From the NCBI RefSeq assembly GCF_000746825.1, contig NZ_JQIV01000006.1:1394784-1418783 (forward strand): a stretch of DNA of 24,000 bases. The letters run 5' to 3'. A program made the position numbers and the translations under genes. The notes under the pieces are model-generated. The model was not told the origin of the DNA and ran no database searches. It saw only the letters and a program-made list of their open reading frames with translations. Source of the DNA: Carnobacterium inhibens subsp. inhibens DSM 13024 (GTDB lineage Bacteria; Bacillota; Bacilli; Lactobacillales; Carnobacteriaceae). Of the stretch, positions 2,331-24,000 are shown piece by piece (positions within the stretch are counted from its first letter, which is position 1; each line of letters starts with the position of its first letter).

Positions 2331-4238
2331 TTAAGGCATGGTTGGTATACTGCCTGTATCTCCTTCACTTGGTTTTTGCATGTCACCATTTGGTTGCATG
2401 TTCTTGTCACCAGGCTGTTGCATTCCGCCCCCCATTTGTCCTGTTGTAGTGCCCACTGTTGTTGATACTGATTCAATTGGAACTTCAAAAATTTCATCAT
2501 TAATGGATAAAGTGTATGTTTCATCTACTGCTAAATCAGCAGAGCTGAACTGTACAGAAGTGAAACTTTTATCTGCTGTCCATGATAAGAGAACTGTACC
2601 GTCTGCATCGCTTAATTCAATTTTGCTACCCGCTTCATAAGTTGTTTCAAATCCATAAAAAACACTTACTTGACTAGAACTGTCTGCAAAAGTTACTGCC
2701 ATTCCAGAGCTTCCAGCAGCCATTAACGTTCCGCCAGTTATCACAGCCTCTCCATTTGAATCAATTGTTCCGTTACCATCATTTTCTGGTCCGCTAACAG
2801 TCGTCACCCCTCCAGAAATTTCAATCGTTCCGTTTGAATCTAATCCATCACCACTGCTGTTCACTGTCAATGTACCACCAGAAATGACCAATGTATTTTC
2901 ACTGTAGCTGCCAGATTCACCCGGTCCGGCTGCTTGTTCAGTTGTTGTTGAAGTCCCACCAGATACATTTACTCCGTCATCACTAGCTACAACGTTTATT
3001 TCTCCATTACTGATTGTAATCGCCTTACCTTCGATTCCTTCATAACTTTCTGTAATAGCAACACTCGAACCACTTAATTGCAAATCATTATCAGCATGTA
3101 AGCCATCGTCTCCGGCAATTAATGTGAGCGATCCTCCTGCAAGTGTCAGATTTCCATCAGTATGCACTGTATCATCAGCCGCATCAATTGCAATCGTGCC
3201 ATCATTAATAATCAACTCGCCGGCTGCTTTCAATCCTTTGGTACTGGTTGAACTGATCTCATCGCTATCCGCATTTTCTTCTTCATCTGCTGCTTGAGCA
3301 AAGAAATCCATCCCTTCTTGTGTTTTTGCTACTGCATTGGCACTCCCGCCACCTGCTGTAATGTCAAATGTTCCGCCATCAATTTGAAGTAGCGTTTCAG
3401 CTTGAATACCGTCTTGCTCTGCATCAATAGTAAAGTTACCTCCGGCTATATAGACAAAACCTTTGCCTTCTTCATCTGCATTATCGGACTGAATACTATC
3501 TGTTCCGGTTTCAAGAGTAAACGTTCCATCTTTGATTTTCACTGCATCTTTTCCTGAAAGTCCTTGGCCTGCTGCAGTAATATTATACGTACCACTTACG
3601 ACGATTAATTCATCTTTTGATACGATTCCGTGATTCGTATTCGCATGTATCGTTAAACTACCAGAGCCGTTAAATGCCAAATCAGCTTTACTAAAAATTG
3701 TTCCATCAATACTAGTCGCATCGGCATCCGTATCAAGTGTTGCTGTACTTCCAGCTTTATCAGTCAATGTATTTTCTGATCCTTCTGCCAATGTCACAAA
3801 GACTTTATCAGCTTCTTCGATCAATAAAGGAGCACTTGTTGAGGAGGTAATATCTACTCCGTCAAAGATCAAATGAACTTCTTCAGTATTCGGGGCCGTT
3901 ACTTTGATTTGACCATCTGAAAGAGTTCCGCTGATCAAATATGTTCCACCAGTTGTAATTGTAACAACATTACCATCAACCGTTGCTCCTTCTCCGCTGC
4001 TTGTGTTCTGATTGTCAGCCAATTGGATAGTAGTAGAATCAGCCTCGTCATATCCGACTTCAAGATCATCGGAACTAAATTCTAAATCATAATCTACTGT
4101 ACTTTCTACAGTGCCAGACTCAGTTGCTGTAGCAGAATCTGCACTTTGACTAGTGCCAGAAGCGGTTGATTGGCATCCGGCTAACATCACCAAAACAGCT
4201 AGTGATAAAAATGGTGTGATCTTCGTCTTTTTTTTCAT
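2331..4238 (-). CDS. Secreted lipoprotein, Cthe_2159-like carbohydrate-binding (parallel beta-helix) domain protein
   Basis: I place the start at ATG 4238 (MKKKTKITPFLSLAVLVMLAGC), giving a signal peptide plus lipobox LAG|C. About a dozen G-G/S-x-x-T-I/V coil-like repeats follow (e.g. ISGGTLTVNSSGDGL, LAGGSLTLIAGDDGL, IDGGTFDITAGGGS). The tail is Gly/Met/Gln/Pro-rich. The track's N-terminal extension to 4301 overlaps the upstream gene and lacks an RBS. Confidence 0.8.
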   Translation of the reverse strand: MKKKTKITPFLSLAVLVMLAGCQSTASGTSQSADSATATESGTVESTVDYDLEFSSDDLEVGYDEADSTTIQLADNQNTSSGEGATVDGNVVTITTGGTYLISGTLSDGQIKVTAPNTEEVHLIFDGVDITSSTSAPLLIEEADKVFVTLAEGSENTLTDKAGSTATLDTDADATSIDGTIFSKADLAFNGSGSLTIHANTNHGIVSKDELIVVSGTYNITAAGQGLSGKDAVKIKDGTFTLETGTDSIQSDNADEEGKGFVYIAGGNFTIDAEQDGIQAETLLQIDGGTFDITAGGGSANAVAKTQEGMDFFAQAADEEENADSDEISSTSTKGLKAAGELIINDGTIAIDAADDTVHTDGNLTLAGGSLTLIAGDDGLHADNDLQLSGSSVAITESYEGIEGKAITISNGEINVVASDDGVNVSGGTSTTTEQAAGPGESGSYSENTLVISGGTLTVNSSGDGLDSNGTIEISGGVTTVSGPENDGNGTIDSNGEAVITGGTLMAAGSSGMAVTFADSSSQVSVFYGFETTYEAGSKIELSDADGTVLLSWTADKSFTSVQFSSADLAVDETYTLSINDEIFEVPIESVSTTVGTTTGQMGGGMQQPGDKNMQPNGDMQKPSEGDTGSIPTMP

Positions 4239-4921
4239 TAGAGTTCTTCCTTTCCAGCTAACGAGCGTCCACAGATAATTTCTAAATTTCCATTTCTGCA
4301 ACGCAATGCGTCGATTAATTGTTTTTCCTGATTTTGATCTTTCAATTCGATCGTATATTCAATCCGAAACAGACTGCCCATATTGGTAGTCTTTACTCTT
4401 ATCATCTGATAACTGGACAAGTATTGTTCGAAGATATCATCAAAAACAGCGCTATAATCTAGATTTTCTGGAATTGTTATTTTTAACAACCGAACCCGTT
4501 CACCCATTTCGCCAAAGCTGGAAAGATTTAATCCAACCATTGCGCCGCAAATAATCAAGGCAAATACTACAGCAAATCCAATATACCCCATTCCGGTTGC
4601 CAGCCCAACGGCCATTGCCAGAAAGATGCTGCTGATTTCCTTAGCTGAACCTGGTACAGAACGGAAACGAACTAAACTAAATGCCCCCATTACTGCAACA
4701 CCGGCTCCAACATTTCCATTGACCAGCATGATCACCATTTGTACCATAGCTGGTAATAGAAATAGAGTCATGACGAAACCTTTAGAAAATTGATTTCTAT
4801 ACATATAGGTCCATGCTATAAATCCTCCTAAAACCAAACTTGACACCGTACAAAGTAGAAAACTCGTGATTGAAAACGCAGATGTACTTTCCATATATAA
4901 ACTATTAAACAACTCACTCAT
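4238..4921 (-). CDS. DUF4956-family membrane protein
   Basis: Four predicted TM helices, a FSLVRFRS motif and a soluble C-terminal domain. ATG 4921 forms an ATGA overlap with the VTC gene stop. Its own TAA overlaps the lipoprotein ATG (TAATG). Confidence 0.75.
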   Translation of the reverse strand: MSELFNSLYMESTSAFSITSFLLCTVSSLVLGGFIAWTYMYRNQFSKGFVMTLFLLPAMVQMVIMLVNGNVGAGVAVMGAFSLVRFRSVPGSAKEISSIFLAMAVGLATGMGYIGFAVVFALIICGAMVGLNLSSFGEMGERVRLLKITIPENLDYSAVFDDIFEQYLSSYQMIRVKTTNMGSLFRIEYTIELKDQNQEKQLIDALRCRNGNLEIICGRSLAGKEEL

Positions 4922-5667
4922 GCACTATAAACCTCTCTTTCTCTTGCTTCCATTATTGGTTCTTCTTGTTTTTTCAAATAATCTTTATACCCATTTGCAT
5001 ATTTCGAAAATTTTGCTGGGTAAATTTGTTGCTCGGATAAGATACGAGCAAGCCATACAGGCATTGCCCCGCAAATTTTTATTTCCATCAATAAGTGATT
5101 TTCCGGTAAAATCGGCTCTCCATAAGATCCAGATGACAAAGAAAGATCATGCGTGCGGTATAAAATTTCTTGATCAAATGTAATCCGGACATCGTTATCC
5201 AATTTCCCAATATAAGCTAGTCTTTTATAAGACAAATACATGGTTGGTTTTAAGTCTGGATAAAAAGAAAGAATTGACTCAAATTCATGTACCTTTTGAT
5301 CATTGTTGATCGATTCCAGCTCATTTTGATGAGCTAAAAATCTTTCAGCATTTTTCAATTGCATCTTTGTTCTTCTTTTATAGACGATTCCATCAAATTT
5401 TTTCTTGATCTCCACATAGACTGAATCTTTTTTAGTTGGAATACCATAACTACGCAATCGAACTTTTTCTTTGTAGAGCGGTTTACTCATTGAATGCCGT
5501 ATCAAATACCAACTTGGGGTATCATAGTAAATATTTGTAATCAAATGCTTGCCGTATTGATCCAGCTCCATATACGGTCTAAGCTCTATAAGCAATTTAT
5601 TCCATTGATCATACGTAATTAAATACTTTGTTTCCTTTCGTTCAAAAACACTTTGATAGTTAGTCAT
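4918..5667 (-). CDS. VTC-domain (polyphosphate-polymerase-like, triphosphate-tunnel/CYTH superfamily) protein
   Basis: I place the start at ATG 5667, with GGAGGTAATAAAT upstream. The sequence shows alternating charged beta-strand motifs typical of tunnel enzymes (FERKETKYLI, KVRLRSY, YVEIKKK, VYKRRTK, LMEIKI). The track start at 5697 has no RBS. Confidence 0.75.
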   Translation of the reverse strand: MTNYQSVFERKETKYLITYDQWNKLLIELRPYMELDQYGKHLITNIYYDTPSWYLIRHSMSKPLYKEKVRLRSYGIPTKKDSVYVEIKKKFDGIVYKRRTKMQLKNAERFLAHQNELESINNDQKVHEFESILSFYPDLKPTMYLSYKRLAYIGKLDNDVRITFDQEILYRTHDLSLSSGSYGEPILPENHLLMEIKICGAMPVWLARILSEQQIYPAKFSKYANGYKDYLKKQEEPIMEAREREVYSA

Positions 5668-5695
5668 ATTTATTACCTCCTTACTCGATGGATAC

Positions 5696-5727
5696 AATAT
5701 AAAACTTGAACCTTAATTGAACCTTAA
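5696..5727 (-). promoter_or_regulatory. Promoter of the VTC operon with an 11-bp perfect tandem direct repeat in place of the -35
   Basis: TTGAACCTTAA (5706-5716) is repeated exactly at 5717-5727; on the minus strand this reads TTAAGGTTCAA x2. Four nt downstream is the -10 TATATT (5701-5696). The hexamer at the -35 position (AGGTTC) is non-consensus. Confidence 0.5.
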
Positions 5728-13957: not shown

Positions 13958-14003
13958 CATAAAAATAACCCCTAAAAGTTAGTTTTTTCTAACTTTTAGG
14001 GGT
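13958..14003 (-). terminator. Intrinsic terminator of codBA
   Basis: 15-bp perfect stem ACCCCTAAAAGTTAG (13968-13982) / CTAACTTTTAGGGGT (13989-14003), followed on the minus strand by TATTTTTAT. Confidence 0.75.
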
Positions 14004-14080
14004 CACTATCTGGACGGGCTTTTTAATTTTTATCCTATGACTGTCTTTTTTTGAAGATTTTTTTATTTTTCTTCCTTACT

Positions 14081-15352
14081 TCAGCGATTAAATTGCACAG
14101 GTTCCTCGAATCCGTCTACCAATGACCAAGTTTCGCTTAATTTGGTTTCTACAATTTTTTTTCCACTTCTGTAAGAGTAGCGGACCGGTACTTGTCTGCG
14201 GATGGCTTCATATTCATTCTCAGCCGGAAGAACGATAAAGTCAGCTGGCTTTCCTTCTTCAATGCCGTAACGTTCTTCAATGTGCAGCGTTTTTGCACTG
14301 TTAATCGTGATCAGATCCATGGCATTCATGATCTCTTCATAGCCTGTCAACTGTGTCGCATGCAGCCCCATCAACAGAACTTGCAGCATATTTCCTGTTC
14401 CTAACGGGTACCACGGGTCATAAATGTCGTCATGACCGAAACAAACCGTTAAATCGGCTTCCAACAATTCTTTAACACGTGTCAAGCCTCGTCGTTTCGG
14501 ATACGTATCAAATCGCCCTTGTAGGTGCATGTTGACCAACGGATTGGAAACAAAACGAATATCAGATAGTTTCAATAGGCGGAATAATTTAGAGGTATAC
14601 GCGTTGTTGTATGATCCCATTGCTGTTGTATGGCTGGCAGTTGTACGTGAGCCCATTCCTCTTTCGTAAGCTTCTTTTGCAACAACTTCCACAAAACGTG
14701 ACTGTTCGTCATCAATCTCATCGCAATGGATATCAACTAGACGATCATATTTTTCAGCCAGATCAAAAGCAATTTTAAGCGATTCTACGCCATATTCTCT
14801 AGTGAATTCATAGTGCGGAATGCCGCCCACTACATCAGCTCCCATTTTCAAGGCTTCTTCCATCAGTTCTTTTCCATTTGGATAAGATAAGATGCCTTCT
14901 TGCGGGAATGCAACGAGTTGGATGTCGACATAGGGTGCCATTTCTTCTTTCACTTCCAGCATAGCTTTTAAGGCCGTCAAATTGGGATCCGTAACATCCA
15001 CATGTGTACGTACGTACTGGATTCCTTGAGCAATCTGCCATTGCAGGGCTTTTTTTGCACGTGTTTTAACATCTTCATGTGTTAGAAAAGCCTTGCGTTC
15101 AGACCAACGCTGGATGCCTTCGAATAATGTTCCGCTTTGATTCCATTCCGGTTCGCCTGCTGTCAAAGTTGTATCTAAATGAATATGTGGTTCAATAAAC
15201 GGCGGAAGCACCAGTGAACCGTTGACATTCAAAACATCATTTATTTTTTCTACAACCTCTAGTTGCGGTTCAATACGGGTAAACATTCCGTCTTCTATCG
15301 TGATTTGCCAAAGTCCTTTTTTTCCTTTTAGAGCTGCATTTTGAATAATCAT
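14081..15352 (-). CDS. codA: Cytosine deaminase
   Basis: Amidohydrolase-fold signature [13 protein letters not shown], plus later HCDE and TASHTTA. It is collinear with E. coli CodA (IINARLPGEEGLWQI vs [16 protein letters not shown]). The start is uncertain: ATG 15352 (GGAG only 3 nt upstream) or TTG 15385 as in the track. Confidence 0.88.
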
Positions 15353-15368
15353 ATACTCCACACTTTCA

Positions 15369-16619
15369 TTAATTATTTTTTTCAAACCTTAATGCTGCCT
15401 TAGTTACCGGTAGTTTCATCAGTCCTGTATAAACCACAGCTGTTCCCACTAATGCGTTGAGTGGTGTGATTCCCGGTGCGAATTGGGCTAAAGCTACACC
15501 GATAGCCCAAGCTAGAAGAGCTATCCAGTTGATTGGTACAAAAGTCGCTTCTTCAAATCTGGTATAGTTGCGGTGTTTCACAAAAAAGTAATCTGCAATA
15601 ATGATTGCTCCAATAGAAGGAATAGCCGCGCTCAGCAAGTTCAAAAAGCCGACAAAATTAGTGTACATCCACATAGCTAATACAGTTCCAATAATTCCAT
15701 TCACAAAAACCCAGAATTTTTTAGAGATTTTCGTAATATTAGCAAATCCTAAACCAGAAGCGTAAAGTGCATTATCATTGGTTGTCCAGATATTCAAAGC
15801 CAGTACCAAAATTGCCGGTATTGTCAGCCCTTGCAAGAATAGGACTTCTGAGATATCTGAAAGCCCATAAACCATTGCCCCCACAGCTCCAAATAGGAAC
15901 ATAAGTGAGTTACCCAAGAAGAAAGCTGTTGAGGTAGCTGCAACAGCTGACCGCGAAGTTTTTGCAAAACGTGCAAAGTCAGCTGTCAACGTTCCGCCAC
16001 TGATAAAGGATCCGATACAGATAGTCAAAGCAGCCGATATTGTTAAACTCGTTTTTGGTTCATAGTCGAATAACGCTCTCAGTCCGCCCATGGTTTCTAT
16101 TGCTTCTATGGCAGAGTAGCTTCCTAAAATCGCAATCAAAGGAACCGCTATAAAGCTTAGAATCACCAGCGACTTCATCCCATAAAGAGAAGCCAGAGTG
16201 ATAACCATCCCGAAGATAAAAATCAACAAGTAACTATTCCAGCCCATTTCTTTTGCAATCGGAACAGCAAACATCGCCACACCGACTCCAAACCATCCTA
16301 CTTGCGTAAAGCCCAATAAGAAGGATGGTAAGTACGAACCTTTCTCACCAAACGAGTACTTTGCCAGCAAGTGGGTAGACAATCCCATTTTAGCTGCAAT
16401 GTGCGCCAATGTTCCGGTATAAAGACAAAGTGCCAAGTTTCCCAACAGAATGACGAGCAAAAATTGAGAGAAAGTCAAATTTAATCCCAATTGCCCTCCT
16501 GCTAGCATACTGGCTGAAAAAAAGGTAAAACCCAGCATTACAGCCATTGTTTTTGCAAAAGAATTACGGCTCGTTTGCGGTACCGTTTGTAATGAAAACT
16601 CTGTATCGATTTTCTTCAT
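15369..16619 (-). CDS. codB: Cytosine permease (NCS1 family)
   Basis: 12-TM protein whose N-terminus matches the CodB pattern ([33 protein letters not shown] vs E. coli VPQSARKGVLALTFVMLGLTFFSASMWTGGTLG). SD GGGAGGA lies before ATG 16619. Confidence 0.88.
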
Positions 16620-16644
16620 GTTGTTCCTCCCATTTCTATGGGTA

Positions 16645-16795
16645 CCAAAAGCACAAAAAGAGGCTGAATATCAGTTTTCCTGACATTCAGCCTCTTTCTT
16701 TAATCTAAGAGAAAAGTGTATACATATACACCTGCACACATTTCTCTTAGATTTTATCCGCTTCCTTGTCAGTCTCTCTGGACTGGTTTAAAGGT
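16645..16795 (-). promoter_or_regulatory. PyrR-type transcription attenuator in the codBA leader
   Basis: The minus-strand RNA reads CCUUUAAACCAGUCCAGAGAGACUGACAAGGAAG (complement of about 16760-16795), which matches the PyrR binding-loop core GUCCAGAGAG-CU...AAGG. A 12-bp-stem hairpin follows (16703-16752). Then comes the terminator AAGAGGCUGAAU.UCAG / CUGA.AUUCAGCCUCUU (16658-16696) with tail UUUUGUGCUUUUGG. Confidence 0.6.
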
Positions 16796-16815
16796 ACCTG
16801 TATTTAATTAAGTTT

Positions 16816-16844
16816 ATTATTCCAGAAAATAGTTTCTCTGTCAA
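16816..16844 (-). promoter_or_regulatory. Candidate sigma-A promoter of the codBA leader
   Basis: The minus strand reads TTGACA (16844-16839) - 17 nt - AATAAT (16821-16816). Confidence 0.5.
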
Positions 16845-17145
16845 CTAGAAAATTCCCCACTAAGATGTCTAAATGTAATGAACTGTATACAATTAAGACA
16901 AAAGAGCAGATACGACAACCGTTCCCTACAGGAACAATGTAGTGAAAAGACTTTTAACAAAAAGATAGAGCGAGAAATGTGTGCCCCTCTTCCTTGAATA
17001 AACGAAGATGATAATTGATGCGTTAGAAGATTTGGGACTAAACGCTTTTCGTCCCTTTCGCATAGAACACTTTACTTGACATGTCTACAAGCACCTCCTA
17101 TTCCTCCGAAAATTTCAACTAAGCTAGTTAACTATTCTATCAACA

Positions 17146-17721
17146 TTAAAAATTATACAACTTTTCTTTTTCCCAGTCTGCTTTAAAGATAGAGTAAGTT
17201 GCTATATCACAAAGGTTTCCCTCGTTATCTTTTGCTCCTTCTCTTTTAATTCCCTCTAAACTCATTCCAACCTTTTTCATAACTTTTCCAGAACCTGAAT
17301 TTTCAGTATGGTGACTGGCTTCTATTCTATTAAATCCAACACGCTCAAACAAAAAGTTTTTTACAGCAGTAAATGCTTCAGTCATAATTCCTTGATTCCA
17401 ATAGTTCTTAAACATGCAATATCCAAACACTGCACATTCAATGTCACTATTTATATCGACGACATCGATAGTTCCTATTACTTGTTGGTTGTCTTTTAAT
17501 TCTCTACACCAACGATAGCAATCCTCTTGTTCCAATTCTTTTTCCCAACTTGAGATGGCGTTTTTTGTATCTTCGATTCTTTTATGCGGCTTCCATGTTA
17601 AATATTTTGTTACTTCCTCATCACTTGCTCAGTTATGATACATATCTTCCGCATTTTCTATCGTAATCCTTTTCAAGACTAAACGATCTGTTTCTATTTG
17701 TTGTGTCCCTATGTTTTTCAT
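17146..17721 (-). pseudogene. GNAT-family (RimJ/RimL-like) N-acetyltransferase interrupted by an in-frame TGA
   Basis: ATG 17721 (SD GGGGGAGA) opens MKNIGTQQIETDRLVLKRITIENAEDMYHN. TGA follows at 17631-17629. The same frame then continues ASDEEVTKYLTWKPH... into the 129-aa track ORF. The stop sits where the family's conserved NWASD Trp is expected, consistent with TGG to TGA. Confidence 0.7.
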
Positions 17722-17870: not shown

Positions 17871-17910
17871 TAAAAAAAAAGAGAACTGCTATATATAAGC
17901 AATTCTCTCT
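17871..17910 (-). terminator. Intrinsic terminator after the GGDEF gene
   Basis: Stem AGAGAACTGC / GCAATTCTCT with one mismatch, followed on the minus strand by a U9 tract (complement of 17872-17880). Confidence 0.65.
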
Positions 17911-18020
17911 GGATAATATAGAAATGGGCTCTTAGTTTTTTTGAAAATAGCCAATCAGAAAACAATATTATTTTCCAATAAGTTATTCTTTCTGTGGATG
18001 GAAATAAATTTACTTATAAT

Positions 18021-19118
18021 CTACTCATTTTCCATTGTTGCTCCAATTACTTTGTTTCTCCCTTGATCTTTAGCCATGTATAAACAACGATCGGCTAGTC
18101 GAAAGAGTTTCTTCATATCTTTTTTTTGAGTAGAGGCAGCCAAACCAATCGATACAGTTATATAAATACCAGCTCCATTTTCTAATAAGAATTCTTTACT
18201 TGCTACACTAGCTCTGATTTTTTCAGCAGTCTTTTTTTTTTCAACATATGGCAGGTTGTTTAAAATTATACAGAATTCTTCTCCGCCAACACGATAGATC
18301 AGCTCATTGTCAGGAGCTCCAACTTGCAGGATTACTGCTAACTGTCGCAAGATAAAGTTTCCATTCGCATGTCCATAAGTATCATTGATCCATTTAAAAT
18401 GATCAATATCCAACATCATAAAAGCAGTCGTAGCAATTGATTTATCCGCTTGAATCGTTTGCCATTTTTTATTAAATACTCTCATGTTGTACAATCCTGT
18501 CAAGTAATCCATTTGTGCTTGTTCTTGAATCTCTAAATACAAATGAAGGTTCTTTATCAAGTCTTCTACAAAAGCGGTCACTATAATCACTACAATGCTT
18601 GAAAGAATAAATAAACTAAAACAAATGAGGCTGCTCAGTAAAATATCATCATAAAAAAAGAATAAATTCAGAGTAATAGCTGAAACACAAACGACATTAA
18701 GCCATGATAAAACAGCGAATTGATTAAATCGTTTCGTTAACTTACTACAGATATACGGCAATAAAAGACCCAACACAACATACATAAGTGCGATTCGAAT
18801 CGAAACAGGATTGACTCCCAATAATAAACGCAATACTGAAATCAAAAAAGCTGTTGGAATAGAAACTGTAGGTCCAAAATAGTAAACCAACAAAATTAAA
18901 ATAATATGTCTAAAATCTATTATCGCTTCTTTAGGCAAGTTAACCGAAAAAAGCATTAAAATAAAATTTGTCATACTAGCTATTCCAATCATTATCAACT
19001 TTTTCTGCAGGTTAAGTGTATATTTTTTTTCTTTTGGAATCAATTTAACAAATATATAAGATGCTGTACAGAGAATCGAAATATTGGCAATAACACTCAA
19101 GAAAACAGATGACAGCAT
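18021..19118 (-). CDS. Membrane-anchored diguanylate cyclase (about 6-7 TM N-terminal domain plus GGDEF)
   Basis: GGDEF domain with LDIDHFKWINDTYGHANGN and an intact active site RVGGEEF (GGEEF at 18273-18287). There is no RxxD I-site five residues upstream (PDNE instead). SD AAGGAG lies before ATG 19118. Confidence 0.88.
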   Translation of the reverse strand: MLSSVFLSVIANISILCTASYIFVKLIPKEKKYTLNLQKKLIMIGIASMTNFILMLFSVNLPKEAIIDFRHIILILLVYYFGPTVSIPTAFLISVLRLLLGVNPVSIRIALMYVVLGLLLPYICSKLTKRFNQFAVLSWLNVVCVSAITLNLFFFYDDILLSSLICFSLFILSSIVVIIVTAFVEDLIKNLHLYLEIQEQAQMDYLTGLYNMRVFNKKWQTIQADKSIATTAFMMLDIDHFKWINDTYGHANGNFILRQLAVILQVGAPDNELIYRVGGEEFCIILNNLPYVEKKKTAEKIRASVASKEFLLENGAGIYITVSIGLAASTQKKDMKKLFRLADRCLYMAKDQGRNKVIGATMENE

Positions 19119-19180
19119 AAAAAAACTCCTTCCATCAGCCAGTCACAGAGAATAATAAAGTAAAGAAATTCAGTAATTAC

Positions 19181-19903
19181 TTAACAACACTTTTTTATAT
19201 TTTTTGAAGGTTTTCCAAAATAGTAACCTTGCTGGATCAAAATTCCTTGTTCTTTCAATTCATCACTTGTTACTTGATCTTCAATACCTTCCACGATAAA
19301 AACGAGATGATAGTCTTCAGAAAATTGTTGCCACGCATTCAAGAAAAGATGCAAGGTTTCTTCATTTAAATCTTTTTTAGCACATTTTACAATTGAAAAT
19401 TTAATCTGATCTAGATAAGGAACATATTTTAAGACCTCATCTAAAGAATTCATACCTGAACCAACATCGTCCAATGCAATACAATAACCTTTTGCCTTGA
19501 TTGATGCAAAAATAGAGTGGAATTTCTTATCAAACGTTAAAGAATCAATAGGTTCAATTGAAGCAGCAAATAATGGGGCATCTTCTGTTATTTCGATGAT
19601 CAATTGTTTAGCATAGGACTGCATGTTAGTGAAAAAAATATGGGTCTCCGGGTAAAATAATTGTTTTGGTGCAAAATTAATAGAAAACTGGACTGTCGGA
19701 AACGACTTTAACAATTGCACCAGTTCTTCTTGAAACCATACTAAAAAGCTTTTGTGCTCTTCTTTATTATGAATAATGTTCTCCATTTTCACTGCTGGAT
19801 AATACGGATTTTGTTCTTTATTTCTTAATAAAATTTCATATCCAACAATTCGATTGTTTCGTACATCGAATTTAGGCTGGAAGTGAAGTTGAAATTCATC
19901 CAT
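19181..19903 (-). CDS. Stand-alone EAL-domain c-di-GMP phosphodiesterase
   Basis: 240 aa consisting of the EAL domain only. Motifs: GYEILLR (the EAL motif as EIL, 19823-19837), SINFAP (Asn), IIEITED, LDDVGSG, QIKFS (Lys), VEGIE, QQGYYFGKP. SD GGGGAGG lies before ATG 19903. Confidence 0.85.
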   Translation of the reverse strand: MDEFQLHFQPKFDVRNNRIVGYEILLRNKEQNPYYPAVKMENIIHNKEEHKSFLVWFQEELVQLLKSFPTVQFSINFAPKQLFYPETHIFFTNMQSYAKQLIIEITEDAPLFAASIEPIDSLTFDKKFHSIFASIKAKGYCIALDDVGSGMNSLDEVLKYVPYLDQIKFSIVKCAKKDLNEETLHLFLNAWQQFSEDYHLVFIVEGIEDQVTSDELKEQGILIQQGYYFGKPSKNIKKCC

Positions 19904-20048
19904 TTAAAGACCTCCCCTTACTACTACTTCAATCGGTCATTTACGTAAGAAAATAAGATGGCACTACGTTTTTCATGTGACTATTTAAAATAAAGAGTGT
20001 CTAAGGCAATAAATCACACTGAGTTCACAAAGAACAGTTAAATCTAAT

Positions 20049-21899
20049 CTATCTATTATTATAATTAGCAAGTAACTCCTCAGAACTATAAACCTGCTGC
20101 TTTATATTGATATTTAGAATTTTTTTAGCTAAGGCATTAAAAGTATAGTGTTCGTCAATTACTACTATATAATCATAATTGGATAAAGTGGATATAAATT
20201 CTTCATCTGAAATAATAAAGTTTTCAATTGCATCCACCTGATTTGAGTATAAGTAATATTTCCCCACATACTGAGTATAATAGCTATCAATGCTTTCTTT
20301 ATCTGCACTTACTATCAAATAACTAGCATTGTTCAAATCTTGGTTATCTCCAGTAATGTTTTTTATCAAATAAGGTATTTCATTCTCATAATTTTTATTA
20401 CTGAACATCATCCCATTGCTTTCTGACAAAATTAATCCTGTAGAAAAGAATAACAATAAAATCGAACTGTATTGATAATACTTTTTTGTTTTGATACTTT
20501 TATAAGACCTATGATTTCGCATAGCAATAGTTTGTTCATAGAGAAGAGAATCCATTTCTTGTACAAGAGTTATAGACAGAATCCCTAAAGAAAAAATAAC
20601 CATACTTGAAGCATATCTTTCAAACCCTGCTAATACTAAAGCTTCTTCTATAGGCATAGAAAATAAAAACATTCCTAGTATCCCTATATAATATAGAATA
20701 ACTATAGCATCCGTCAAAAATAGCATCTTGATCAAGCTATTCTTTCTCTTAAATCCTACTCTAATAATTAAATATGCCCCGATAAAGATTACATTTACGA
20801 ATATAATTCCTTGAGTAGATAAACTATGCCAATCTATAACAGTTGAAGTGAAAGTGTGTATAATCTGAGTGGTAATCTCGTTTGTTTTTTCTGCAAATAT
20901 GTCTTGATAAGAGCTAATATTCACACTATGTTTAGATACTTCTTCTGTAAATGTGTTTTTTACATGTACTTCCCATAATATAAACGTGGAAATAGAAAAC
21001 ATCACTGTTGAGCCAATTCCCACCACTAGGTGCATTATTTTAGATTGTTCTTTATTGAAATTTTTTATGCTGGTATACAAATAATAAAGCAGCACGATCA
21101 CAACAAAAAATAATCCGCTATTTTTAACAATAGCTAAAACGGATAATAACAGTATTGTATGAATCGAAGAAAGCAAAAAGTTTTTTCTCAACACATAAAT
21201 GCCTGAAACAGCCGCTAATGCTAACAGTGGCAATAGAAAATCAACTAATAAGTTATTCATCCTAATAGCTATATTAAAATAATTAAATAGTGCTATAGTC
21301 AAAAATAGACTACTTGTCATAAGCGTTCTAGAAGAATCTCGTATAACTGAAAATAGAGAATAGAGTGCAGCTATAATAAGCATAAACTGACCTAGCAACA
21401 TAACGCCTTCATGATAACCAACAATTAAGGTAACATAATAAACAAACAGAGAAGATCCAATAGGATAGGATGTAAAGCTAATAATCCCTGTTGCCGCTGT
21501 AGGTAATGAAGCTTCTGTAATAAGGTACTTGACGATTACAGCCCAATGAGAAAAATTGTCATAGTGAACAAGACTGGATTGCAATAGAATAACAGAAAAA
21601 ATCAAAAAATAACCGACCATCCATATTCTAGTCAAATCTAACGAAAAGAGCCTAATTTTACTATCATTTTTATGTCTAAATAGGTTCACACTAAAAAGAA
21701 GTAGGCCGATTAGAAACATAGCAATTGCAGTGCCAGATAAAAATCCTAGTAAAGAAGCAATATACAGAACGATTATATTTGCACAAAAGATAACAATTAA
21801 AGACAGCTTTGATGGATAGCCAAACTTTCTTTCAATGTAGATTCGATACCCATACGTTGACAAACAAAACAGAAAAAAACGTAATACTATAATGATCAT
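20049..21899 (-). CDS. Large polytopic membrane protein of unknown family (about 13-15 TM plus a C-terminal soluble domain of about 115 aa)
   Basis: ATG 21899 forms an ATGA overlap with the GT2-PilZ stop (TGA 21898-21896), with GGAG 9 nt upstream. The track start at 21914 is a TTG. Hydrophobic helices run throughout. The first long loop carries HYDNFSHW. The C-terminal segment (NKNYENEIPYL...EELLANYNNR) is hydrophilic. I recognise no family motif. Confidence 0.75.
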   Translation of the reverse strand: MIIIVLRFFLFCLSTYGYRIYIERKFGYPSKLSLIVIFCANIIVLYIASLLGFLSGTAIAMFLIGLLLFSVNLFRHKNDSKIRLFSLDLTRIWMVGYFLIFSVILLQSSLVHYDNFSHWAVIVKYLITEASLPTAATGIISFTSYPIGSSLFVYYVTLIVGYHEGVMLLGQFMLIIAALYSLFSVIRDSSRTLMTSSLFLTIALFNYFNIAIRMNNLLVDFLLPLLALAAVSGIYVLRKNFLLSSIHTILLLSVLAIVKNSGLFFVVIVLLYYLYTSIKNFNKEQSKIMHLVVGIGSTVMFSISTFILWEVHVKNTFTEEVSKHSVNISSYQDIFAEKTNEITTQIIHTFTSTVIDWHSLSTQGIIFVNVIFIGAYLIIRVGFKRKNSLIKMLFLTDAIVILYYIGILGMFLFSMPIEEALVLAGFERYASSMVIFSLGILSITLVQEMDSLLYEQTIAMRNHRSYKSIKTKKYYQYSSILLLFFSTGLILSESNGMMFSNKNYENEIPYLIKNITGDNQDLNNASYLIVSADKESIDSYYTQYVGKYYLYSNQVDAIENFIISDEEFISTLSNYDYIVVIDEHYTFNALAKKILNINIKQQVYSSEELLANYNNR

Positions 21900-24000
21900 C
21901 TTTTGTTTCTCCAATCCTTTAATAAGCTATGAAAAGCACTATCCTCAATTAGTTCATCTATATTCTCTACCAAATAAACATAATTCCCTGTACTTAAATC
22001 AGACTCAGATAACGTAAGTTTAAACAGTACGTTTTTATATAGAACATCCATTTGTTTCTGCATGATATCTACACTATCACTTTGTATAACCATTGTCTGA
22101 AAATCAAATTCTTTTAATACTACAGAAGTATTCTGAATTTCAATGCTTTCATGCAGGGTAATTATTGGAAATTTAGATAATTTTTTGGGAGCAGCTATTT
22201 TTTTAATTGAAAAATGGTGCATAAAATTGTCTATTAAACCATCTAAAGGTGTTAGCCACACATCATGCTTCTTAGGCAAATATTGATTACTTCGATCATA
22301 AACCAATTGAAAATAGGCTTGTTTATTAGCACGTTCCGGTTTTTCAATCCAAACGCCATATAGCCACCCATCAGATTGTTCCATCACTCTGGCAATTTTC
22401 CCTCTAACCTTTACACTATTTTTCTCTGTTTGTATGTCAAAATTGAGCCATTCATCAGGCGGGAAATAAATTGGTTCTTCAGAAAAGAATGACAGCCCTT
22501 CTTCTGATATGTTTGTCGTATAGAGCGAATAACTATGGTTTAAGCAAGTTATTGTCATCGCTTCTTTGGCATAAAACCTTTCAAATTTACGATAAATTGG
22601 CCGGCCTAGAGAGAATAAAACGGCATATGCAAGATTCACTATATGATGTAATAACCAGAACGTAATAACACTGCCATACAATAATTCCGAACCGTATTTT
22701 CCATAGTTAAATTTAACTAAACCGTAAAGTGAAAGGAGCAGCATTATTAGATGCGGAACTACAAATAACAATTCATATCGTGATTTGTTCACTGACTTTT
22801 TCGTAACCTTGAATTTTTTTTCTGTGATTCCAATAGACTCTAAAAATACAGGTATTACTAAATAAGGTGCAAAGATCGTTTCCTGTATCTCTCCCCAACG
22901 TTGCGATCTTATTTCGCCCGAGACGCTGGTCATAGCACTTTGTAATAAAAAATAACTAGGAAGCCAAAAACACATTAATATCCAAAAATCAGTATCAACT
23001 ACACGAATGTTGAATACAGTAAATAAAATTGGAGCAAATACATACAAAAGACGCCTAAAAAATGACCACCAATACAAATAACTATTTAGAAAAACCAATT
23101 TCTGATTCCATTTAAAATTAGGATTAGTTAATATACGTAAATTATAGATACTACGGATAACACCGCGTGCCCATCTTACACGCTGGTTCAAGACGCTTTG
23201 AAAATCAGTTGGGGTCAGCCCACTGGCCATTGGTTCAAGCGTTGAAATACTTCTATAGCCGCAACTATTTATTTTTGCCCCTAATTGAAAGTCTTCGGTA
23301 ATCGTATTGGTTGGAAAACCGCCAGCCTCTTCAATCGCTTGTCTTAGGATCAATGTATTTGAACCTGTGTATATAGCTGTATCATGTGCATTGTTTAATA
23401 CATTTACTTCTCTAGAAAAGAAATCTTGTTCATTAGCTATTGAATTTTCTGAGAATAAATTATATTGAAAAATATCGGCATTGTAAAAACTTTGAGGGGT
23501 TTGAATAAAACCAAGGTGTTTATGATTAGGGTCATCTTTAACCTTGAAATCTTCCATAAAATAAGGAACGGTTTCCATTAAAAATTTTGAATAAGGAATC
23601 ATATCAGCATCAAACGTTGCAACTAATGGGGAATTCGTCATACTTAATGCATTATTCAGATTTCCTGATTTCGCATGCTTATTATTTTCAAAACCTGCAT
23701 ATCCCACATTGAATTGTTTTGCCAATTCCTTAACTTCTTTTCTATTGGTATCATCAGATAAATAAATATGAATTTTTAAAGGATCAGGGTATTCCATGTG
23801 AACACAGGCATTAACCGTTTTGTATAATAAATCTACATCCTCATTGTGTGTTGCTATTATTACGTCTACATGCGGGTATTCTTCATTTTCCAGTACCGGT
23901 TTTTCCAATATTTTTTCTTTGCTCTTACTCCAAATCAAAATAAATGCCGTGAAATTTGAAACGACTTCACTCACCCAAAGTGCTATACCAAAAATAAGAG
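21896..24000 (-). CDS. BcsA-like processive family-2 glycosyltransferase with a C-terminal PilZ domain (5' end outside the window)
   Basis: The frame stays open upstream of the track's GVG... GTG 23974 (..LIFGIALW precedes it), so the N-terminus lies beyond 24000. Motifs, numbered on the track protein: HAKSGNLN 100-107, DAD 122-124, TED 226-228, QRVRW 264-268, then TM helices. PilZ motifs are RKFER (RxxxR, nt 22577-22591) and NISEEG (D/NxSxxG, nt 22496-22513). About 130 further residues follow the PilZ domain. Confidence 0.85.
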   Translation of the reverse strand, partial: LIFGIALWVSEVVSNFTAFILIWSKSKEKILEKPVLENEEYPHVDVIIATHNEDVDLLYKTVNACVHMEYPDPLKIHIYLSDDTNRKEVKELAKQFNVGYAGFENNKHAKSGNLNNALSMTNSPLVATFDADMIPYSKFLMETVPYFMEDFKVKDDPNHKHLGFIQTPQSFYNADIFQYNLFSENSIANEQDFFSREVNVLNNAHDTAIYTGSNTLILRQAIEEAGGFPTNTITEDFQLGAKINSCGYRSISTLEPMASGLTPTDFQSVLNQRVRWARGVIRSIYNLRILTNPNFKWNQKLVFLNSYLYWWSFFRRLLYVFAPILFTVFNIRVVDTDFWILMCFWLPSYFLLQSAMTSVSGEIRSQRWGEIQETIFAPYLVIPVFLESIGITEKKFKVTKKSVNKSRYELLFVVPHLIMLLLSLYGLVKFNYGKYGSELLYGSVITFWLLHHIVNLAYAVLFSLGRPIYRKFERFYAKEAMTITCLNHSYSLYTTNISEEGLSFFSEEPIYFPPDEWLNFDIQTEKNSVKVRGKIARVMEQSDGWLYGVWIEKPERANKQAYFQLVYDRSNQYLPKKHDVWLTPLDGLIDNFMHHFSIKKIAAPKKLSKFPIITLHESIEIQNTSVVLKEFDFQTMVIQSDSVDIMQKQMDVLYKNVLFKLTLSESDLSTGNYVYLVENIDELIEDSAFHSLLKDWRNKR

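Follow-up and report, generated by a model that had tools for sequence, protein, structure and literature searches.

A Carnobacterium inhibens operon placing a BcsA-like PilZ synthase between a putative lipid-sugar synthase and a GT-C-like membrane protein

Organization of the locus

The end of a 24,000-nt stretch of the genome of Carnobacterium inhibens subsp. inhibens DSM 13024 (contig NZ_JQIV01000006.1, positions 1,394,784-1,418,783; hereafter the window, whose coordinates are used unless stated otherwise) carries a cluster of minus-strand genes in which predicted enzymes of cyclic di-GMP (c-di-GMP) turnover accompany a BcsA-like polysaccharide synthase. A preliminary description had recognized four co-oriented genes, and all four open reading frames (ORFs) do exist. 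In the direction of transcription, these encode a synthase of glycosyltransferase family 2 (GT2) with a fused PilZ domain (21896-24000, truncated by the window end), a polytopic membrane protein of 616 residues counted from an ATG (20049-21899; hereafter the partner), an EAL protein of 240 residues (19181-19903) and a GGDEF protein of 365 residues with several transmembrane (TM) helices (18021-19118). The synthase ORF remains open to position 24000, with 700 of its 736 residues visible. The sequence past this point comes from six longer contigs, which share 99.3-99.7% identity with the window and were retrieved by exact-protein look-up of the 616-residue partner (the version from a TTG start matched nothing; residue numbers below refer to the ATG version). 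In the near-identical Carnobacterium contig used as reference (L001), the synthase start codon lies about 106 nt past position 24000. Upstream and co-oriented, there is a fifth gene, encoding a 350-residue protein that combines a GT2 with a GtrA_DPMS_TM domain (GT2-GtrA), which overlaps the synthase start by 4 bp. The locus is therefore a five-gene operon rather than the four-gene one that had been described. The ATGA coupling reported between synthase and partner is real (21896-21899, with the synthase stop at 21896-21898 and the partner ATG at 21899-21897), and the synthase gene consequently overlaps both its neighbours.

The 3' end of the transcription unit is likely marked by a terminator-like hairpin with a T-run (17878-17910, minus strand), a consensus match found by a pattern scan about 110 nt after the GGDEF stop codon (13990-14022 in L001, mapped to the window). 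The scan of this L001 stretch returned one further site, which falls within the coding region of GT2-GtrA (L001 7671-7697); the gaps between the genes of the operon have none. Shuffled sequence is expected to yield at least as many such sites. Promoter scans, likewise, performed no better than on shuffled sequence. Control by a c-di-GMP riboswitch was considered and rejected, Rfam having found none in the window or in L001.

A BcsA-like synthase with a canonical and a degenerate PilZ domain

Searches of Pfam, in which matches were accepted above the curated gathering thresholds, found GT2, PilZ, EAL and GGDEF domains in the proteins for which they had been predicted. The synthase matches Glyco_tranf_2_3 (1.1e-17) and Glyco_trans_2_3 (1.3e-16), the GT2 families overall ranging from 1e-17 to 4e-13, and phmmer aligns it with BcsA of Escherichia coli (8e-61) and Rhodobacter sphaeroides (1e-54). 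With BcsA (R./Cereibacter sphaeroides and E. coli; PDB 4hg6, 4p00 and 7lby), it shares about 30% identity over some 500 residues and the GT2 core D,D,D,QxxRW with HAKxGNLN, represented here by HAKSGNLN (23654-23677), DAD (23603-23611), TED (23291-23299) and QRVRW (23171-23185), all on the minus strand. Two further BcsA features are found downstream, on the same strand. The FxVTxK gating loop reads FKVTKK (22796-22813), and the C-terminal PilZ domain (PF07238, E-value 2.1e-9, 38.1 bits against a cut-off of 22.5) contains both c-di-GMP contact motifs, RxxxR and [D/N]xSxxG, within 22496-22603 (RPIYRKFER and NISEEG, with RKFER at 22577-22591 and NISEEG at 22496-22513). The preliminary description was thus correct in proposing a fused PilZ domain with two intact motifs, and every motif coordinate that it gave is exact, including that of the GGEEF discussed below.

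These features are widely kept in the related loci described below. FxVTxK is present in all those that carry the C-terminal region of the synthase, and both PilZ motifs in all but four of those that carry the PilZ region, the exceptions being three Leuconostoc loci without either and an Enterococcus locus (L015) without the second RxxxR. The Leuconostoc orthologues (L020, L023 and L024) retain the GT2-GtrA, synthase and partner genes, have lost both RxxxR and DxSxxG and have no Pfam PilZ match. Judging from these losses, the Leuconostoc version may be independent of c-di-GMP; it is also a possible natural control.

Beyond the canonical PilZ domain, the synthase ends in a second, degenerate PilZ-like β-barrel with a C-terminal helix (21899-22174, minus strand). 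In an AlphaFold2 model (m03534a8476e4), its last ~90 residues form six strands and a helix, with block-mean pLDDT values of 86-95 over fragment residues 51-140, and the top Foldseek matches in the PDB are PilZ domains (Alg44 4rt0, 4xrn, MapZ, YcgR, PlzA and BcsA). This barrel has neither RxxxR nor DxSxxG and probably serves protein contacts rather than ligand binding. The synthases of Lactobacillaceae, Leuconostoc, Weissella and Pediococcus end about 90 residues earlier, consistent with the absence of the second barrel. A homologue search with the synthase C-terminus alone gave two matches, in a search that is limited by its word index. The tandem of a PilZ and a degenerate PilZ domain may couple the signal to the partner.

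Could this simply be a cellulose operon with its accessory genes at another place in the genome? The synthase does, after all, match BcsA structures and the CelA model best, and several database records name its orthologues 'cellulose synthase (UDP-forming)'. However, it reaches only 303.5 bits with the NCBIfam CelA model (TIGR03030), whose equivalog cut-off is 699 bits, and 253 bits with PRK11498, whose cut-off is 992. The FFCGS segment of BcsA aligns with IYTGSN, and a related Gram-positive enzyme makes a mixed-linkage glucan rather than cellulose (PMC10374906). Judging by the Pfam labels of all genes within 10 kb to either side in the near-identical, same-species contigs, none encodes BcsB, BcsZ or BcsC; upstream of the synthase, where bcsB or bcsZ would have pointed to a standard operon, the GT2-GtrA gene is found instead. 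Such an operon is hence very improbable, and the views that this is not a canonical bcs operon and that the partner is non-canonical both hold. With BcsB and BcsZ absent and the equivalog score not reached, the locus is, as far as its sequence allows it to be classified, not a member of the bcs class. It also differs from bcs operons in that the synthase does not have the N-terminal region of BcsA, since the alignment begins only at about residue 203 of the E. coli protein and 57-69 of the R. sphaeroides one, has an extra degenerate PilZ-like barrel and has a putative lipid-sugar synthase and a GT-C-like protein as neighbours.

The synthase gene has been inactivated repeatedly in sequenced strains. 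In a Carnobacterium strain (L003, 8850-9250), a premature stop is accompanied by an A8-to-A7 frameshift just 5' of the gating loop; the A8 tract, at 22814-22821 of the window, could be a phase-variation site. In Oceanobacillus, the synthases of two species are interrupted, by a stop codon (L014) and a frameshift (L027). A metagenomic sequence (P0209) that seemed to be a 'Rosetta-stone' fusion of synthase and partner was rejected as such. A deletion joins synthase residues 1 to ~351 to the partner from residue ~302, and it is read as an inactivated locus.

A GT2-GtrA protein and a GT-C-like membrane partner

In the protein encoded upstream of the synthase, a Pfam GT2 domain (8.9e-11) is fused to PF04138, GtrA_DPMS_TM, which scores 33 bits where 26.1 are required. 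In NCBIfam, the protein comes closest to polyprenyl-phosphate sugar synthases, namely PpgS (9e-18), AglJ and a Dol-P-hexose transferase, all under their equivalog cut-offs, and no sequence relative was found in the PDB.

The partner had been considered impossible to assign to any family. This stands at the level of sequence libraries, since it matches nothing in Pfam or NCBIfam. Extended to 33 homologues and to 10 distant members of the family, the same searches returned only noise and no GT-C family (PMT_2, YfhO, PMT, STT3 and others), while phmmer and profile searches of PDB sequences with the partner gave nothing but chance matches such as 14-3-3. An AlphaFold2 model built with 34 homologues (pLDDT 84.5, pTM 0.87) has about 14 membrane helices and a C-terminal α/β domain (residues ~503-616), and resembles GT-C glycosyltransferases: Foldseek gave a probability of 1.00 only for PglB (5ogl and 6gxc) and ArnT (5f15), all GT-C enzymes, the next match having at most 0.14. 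These scores are otherwise modest, with E-values of 4e-3 to 7e-3 and TM-scores of 0.33-0.42.

The conserved motifs of the partner are HYDNFSHW (112-119), NIAIRMNNLLVDF (209-221), K259, SKH (322-324) and MPxEEAL...FERY (415-429), and residues invariant across the family down to 22% identity include D114, F116, H118, W119, D220, K259, E419, R428 and Y429. By the positive-inside rule, these motifs and the C-terminal domain are predicted to be extracytoplasmic. D114, in HYDNFSHW, and D220 are predicted to lie in an outside loop after a TM helix, as in GT-C enzymes. The partner is a rather plausible lipid-sugar-dependent transferase. Its family is large, numbering 3260 cluster representatives (50% identity, E <= 1e-3), and in one distant member the C-terminal domain has been swapped for an ILEI domain. 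Some database records call its members 'Dolichyl-phosphate-mannose...' or 'RgtA/B/C/D-like'. Many NCBI and UniRef records use the name 'lantibiotic ABC transporter permease', which no result obtained here supports and which looks like a propagated misannotation.

The modest GT-C scores leave room for a different role, that of a non-catalytic co-subunit standing in for BcsB or PgaD and stabilizing the synthase or guiding the chain, with the GT2-GtrA protein serving some other purpose. The partner gene takes the place of bcsB, behind the synthase and coupled to it through ATGA, BcsB itself is absent at the locus, and Gram-positive systems are known to use non-homologous partners, e.g. GtsA (PMC6123363) and CcsB (PMC7710045). 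Invariant outward Asp, Lys, Glu and Arg residues nevertheless suggest catalysis rather than scaffolding, and the region missing from the N-terminus of the synthase is the one that the RiGT2 paper ties to BcsB binding (PMC10374906). The same source describes RiGT2, a Gram-positive BcsA-like PilZ synthase, as working alone, without BcsB (PMC10374906). A co-subunit role is therefore unlikely. Identifying the partner with either of the two known proteins was also rejected, because CcsB is a two-helix CBM11-like protein (PMC7710045), and the published description of GtsA gives it just two membrane loops and no conserved domain (PMC6123363).

Predicted enzymes of c-di-GMP turnover

The EAL protein (Pfam EAL, 2.3e-25) had been described as a stand-alone protein with its catalytic residues present, and all of them could be located: E23/R27 (EILLR), N76, E104 (EITE), D145/D146 (DDVG), K168, E205 (EGIE) and Q224/225. 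They align with the catalytic positions of its best solved relative, the EAL-only protein 3kzp (2.8e-44), and the protein is predicted to be a stand-alone phosphodiesterase.

The last gene encodes, as proposed, a multi-TM GGDEF protein. It matches GGDEF (1.4e-36) and the membrane sensor domain 5TM-5TMR_LYT (4.5e-8) in Pfam, and a GdpS-like model in NCBIfam (165 bits, below the cut-off). Its GGEEF (18273-18287, minus strand) is part of an RVGGEEF A-site, which, together with DIDHFKWINDTYGH and AKDQGRNKV, aligns with the A-site, Mg-binding and C-terminal segments of solved diguanylate cyclases. There is no RxxD I-site, PDNE being found at the position of REGD of PA0861 in an alignment with PA0861 and DosC. 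The protein is a predicted active membrane diguanylate cyclase with a 5TMR-LYT sensor.

Conservation of a three-gene unit

Gene order was compared in 78 loci from 28 genera, one genome being retained per species, and operon parts within 9 kb of the partner gene were counted by tblastn. The synthase-PilZ gene adjoins the partner in 77 of these loci (the exception is a contig of 2.9 kb) and the GT2-GtrA gene is found in 69, usually directly upstream of the synthase, which thus usually sits between the other two. GGDEF genes were found in 30 loci, EAL genes in 14 and both in only 12. The packaging of cyclase, phosphodiesterase and PilZ effector with the synthase, which the preliminary description had emphasized, is borne out in C. 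inhibens, but the signalling pair is not conserved. Because the three other genes are near-universal, the conserved unit is the GT2-GtrA/synthase-PilZ/partner trio, and the signalling genes are a variable add-on.

Most of the loci are from Lactobacillales (Carnobacterium, Enterococcus, Trichococcus, Leuconostoc, Streptococcus salivarius/equinus, Aerococcus, Lactiplantibacillus, Levilactobacillus, Companilactobacillus, Weissella, Pediococcus and Lactococcus), with Oceanobacillus and Erysipelotrichaceae also represented. In S. salivarius (KSS6; L044, 4585-10941) and its relatives, PAS-GGDEF, GT2-GtrA, synthase-PilZ and partner genes form one cluster, with no EAL gene nearby. A single cluster of partner sequences (P0102) comprises 8147 members, and the module is therefore common in S. 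salivarius, an abundant commensal of humans. In Lactiplantibacillus, Levilactobacillus and Companilactobacillus (L049-L079), the partner is tandemly duplicated in 20 loci, the copies being ~35-40% identical to the query. A full-text search of the literature returned nothing on the trio, S. salivarius included, beyond a 2012 remark on Enterococcus casseliflavus.

Four distant relatives of the partner are on contigs long enough for their surroundings to be judged. Two, L085 and L089, directly follow a GT2-GtrA gene, which L089 overlaps by 4 bp, and have no PilZ synthase; one follows a plain GT2 (L088) and the fourth stands alone. Since distant relatives adjoin GT2-GtrA genes where there is no synthase at all, the partner family pairs primarily with the lipid-sugar synthase, which is a further argument against a co-subunit of the polysaccharide synthase.

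The same relatives bear on another explanation, in which the GT2-GtrA protein and the partner, as a Gtr- or CsbB-YfhO-type pair, glycosylate some other acceptor on the surface (a teichoic acid or a protein, for instance) and share no more than their expression with the synthase. Family members without a synthase must indeed use other acceptors, and teichoic acids are what the Gtr-type pairs known from Firmicutes modify. In the close subfamily (at least 34% identity), however, 77 of 78 adjoin a synthase, which usually lies between both genes and in Carnobacterium overlaps both neighbours. Moreover, L069 and L082 each have two complete synthase-partner sets, the two genes having been duplicated jointly. 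This explanation thus seems improbable.

Comparison with known systems

Gtr-type systems follow a three-component logic in which a GtrB-type enzyme, GtrA and a GT-C transferase cooperate, as in GtrA/GtrB/Gtr-type, CsbB-GtcA-YfhO, PpgS-Rv3779 and GacI-GacL. The Carnobacterium locus has in common with them a GT2 similar to polyprenyl-phosphate sugar synthases, a GtrA-like four-helix domain and a large polytopic protein of GT-C-like fold with conserved acidic residues facing outwards. It differs in that GtrA is fused to the GT2 and that the partner matches no Pfam GT-C family, including YfhO and PMT_2. To our knowledge, the acceptors in the known systems are O-antigen, teichoic acids, arabinogalactan or rhamnan, and not the product of a c-di-GMP-gated synthase.

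The preliminary description had pointed to a comparable gts/pdeA/dgcA-type operon in Lactobacillus acidophilus. The system does exist, as gtsA-gtsB-pdeB and dgcA-pdeA (PMC6123363). The host is again a lactic acid bacterium, it has a single cluster, and a BcsA-like GT2 controls exopolysaccharide. Its DgcA, a 5-TM GGDEF protein without I-site, and its EAL-only PdeA have the same architectures as the Carnobacterium cyclase and phosphodiesterase (PMC6123363). The output module is not the same. In L. acidophilus, c-di-GMP is received by PdeB, whose EAL domain is degenerate, and GtsB has no PilZ domain (PMC6123363). In Carnobacterium, the predicted receptor is the fused PilZ domain, and the sole EAL protein has its catalytic residues. 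GtsA is a membrane protein with two membrane loops and no conserved domains, in contrast with the polytopic 616-residue partner, and no GT2-GtrA gene has been described (PMC6123363).

Gram-positive BcsA-like GT2-PilZ enzymes that do without BcsB are also known from the clostridial ccsZABHI cluster and, as RiGT2, from Romboutsia (PMC7710045, PMC10374906). RiGT2 is described without the N-terminal helix, like the Carnobacterium synthase, and without a clustered bcsB-type gene (PMC10374906). CcsB has two helices and a CBM11-like domain, and the CcsZ (GH5) and CcsH/I (MBOAT/DHHW) proteins have no Carnobacterium counterparts (PMC7710045). The available text of these two papers reports no Gtr-like pair (PMC7710045, PMC10374906), and the Carnobacterium locus is not a member of the ccs cluster.

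The one orthologous locus with a published mention is that of E. casseliflavus, noted in 2012 in a comparative genomics study and, as far as the available part of that paper goes, not characterized (PMC3374389). In three loci of this species (L010, L011 and L021), the order is EAL, GGDEF, GGDEF, GT2-GtrA, synthase-PilZ (68% identical core) and partner (47%), the cyclase and phosphodiesterase genes thus being upstream rather than downstream as in Carnobacterium. The partner and GT2-GtrA genes go unmentioned in the accessible portion of the paper (PMC3374389).

A model for a decorated exopolysaccharide

The following model starts from what was observed, namely domain identities, motif integrity, gene order with its conservation and fold resemblance. 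Ligand binding and what each enzyme does are inferred from these, as are the lipid-linked donor, the synthase's own product as acceptor and the sugar chemistry. We lean, on balance, towards reading the five-gene operon as a c-di-GMP-controlled, decorated exopolysaccharide system. The cyclase, with its 5TMR-LYT sensor and no feedback I-site, would make c-di-GMP in response to an envelope cue, and the cotranscribed EAL-only enzyme would degrade it. By analogy with BcsA, c-di-GMP would bind the canonical PilZ domain (through RKFER and NISEEG) and free the FKVTKK loop, and it is highly probable that the synthase is gated in this manner. The synthase would then polymerize a UDP-sugar and thread the chain through its own membrane channel, with no need for BcsB. 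In parallel, the GT2-GtrA fusion would load a monosaccharide onto undecaprenyl phosphate, which its GtrA-like four-helix domain may help to present or flip. Finally, the GT-C-type partner would move the lipid-linked sugar onto the emerging polymer at the outer face of the membrane, its outward C-terminal domain probably recognizing the acceptor. That this acceptor is the synthase's own polymer is an evenly balanced proposition. Whether the trio amounts to an undescribed class of Gram-positive exopolysaccharide machine, in which a backbone made by a synthase is branched outside the cell by a GT-C transferase using lipid-linked sugar, can be answered in the affirmative only tentatively.

Several points weigh against this model. 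The PilZ domain of RiGT2 did not bind c-di-GMP in vitro despite intact motifs (PMC10374906), and motif integrity is therefore no proof of gating. The acceptor of the partner could be teichoic acid or a protein instead. The GT2-GtrA gene is not within reach in nine of the 78 loci. The 145-bp gap 5' of the EAL gene (19904-20048) could hold an internal promoter, and the dgcA-pdeA genes of L. acidophilus are indeed a separate operon (PMC6123363).

Genomic surroundings

Upstream of the GT2-GtrA gene, a 490-bp intergenic region precedes divergent genes encoding a DUF1858 protein and a DUF438-hemerythrin-PAS_10 protein (L001 4707-6255). They adjoin the promoter region of the operon in all six of the Carnobacterium contigs, including those in which the genes beyond them differ between strains, and may be gas- or redox-sensing. 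The operon (18001-24000) is AT-richer than the permease and amidohydrolase genes of the same window, with a GC content of 0.285-0.337 against 0.40-0.42 (14001-17000). Those genes, a cytosine/purine permease (15369-16619) and an amidohydrolase (14081-15385), lie downstream of a PyrR binding site (16653-16798, minus strand; Rfam RF00515), whose 55.5 bits are barely over the gathering score of 54. A GNAT acetyltransferase ORF (17146-17535, minus strand) covers only the C-terminal positions 50-137 of a 138-position Pfam model, and the gene is split in some strains into genes of 89 and 62 or 75 and 63 residues; it is probably decaying. Further away, three minus-strand genes (2331-5697) encode a Cthe_2159 carbohydrate-binding protein (656 residues), a DUF4956 protein and a VTC-domain protein, and are unrelated to the operon.

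Significance

While c-di-GMP-gated synthases are well understood in Gram-negative bacteria, their Gram-positive partners are mostly unknown. A synthase-dependent exopolysaccharide gated by c-di-GMP is of an already known kind; the new element here is a conserved Gtr-like decorating pair, whose transferase would come from a large unannotated family. The model offers a testable role for this orphan family of membrane proteins, for which there is no Pfam model. The module is present in bacteria of food, the gut and the oral cavity, including S. salivarius, S. equinus, E. casseliflavus, Leuconostoc, Levilactobacillus, Pediococcus and Weissella. If the model is true, these organisms would add side chains to synthase-made polymers by combining two pathways that are usually treated separately.

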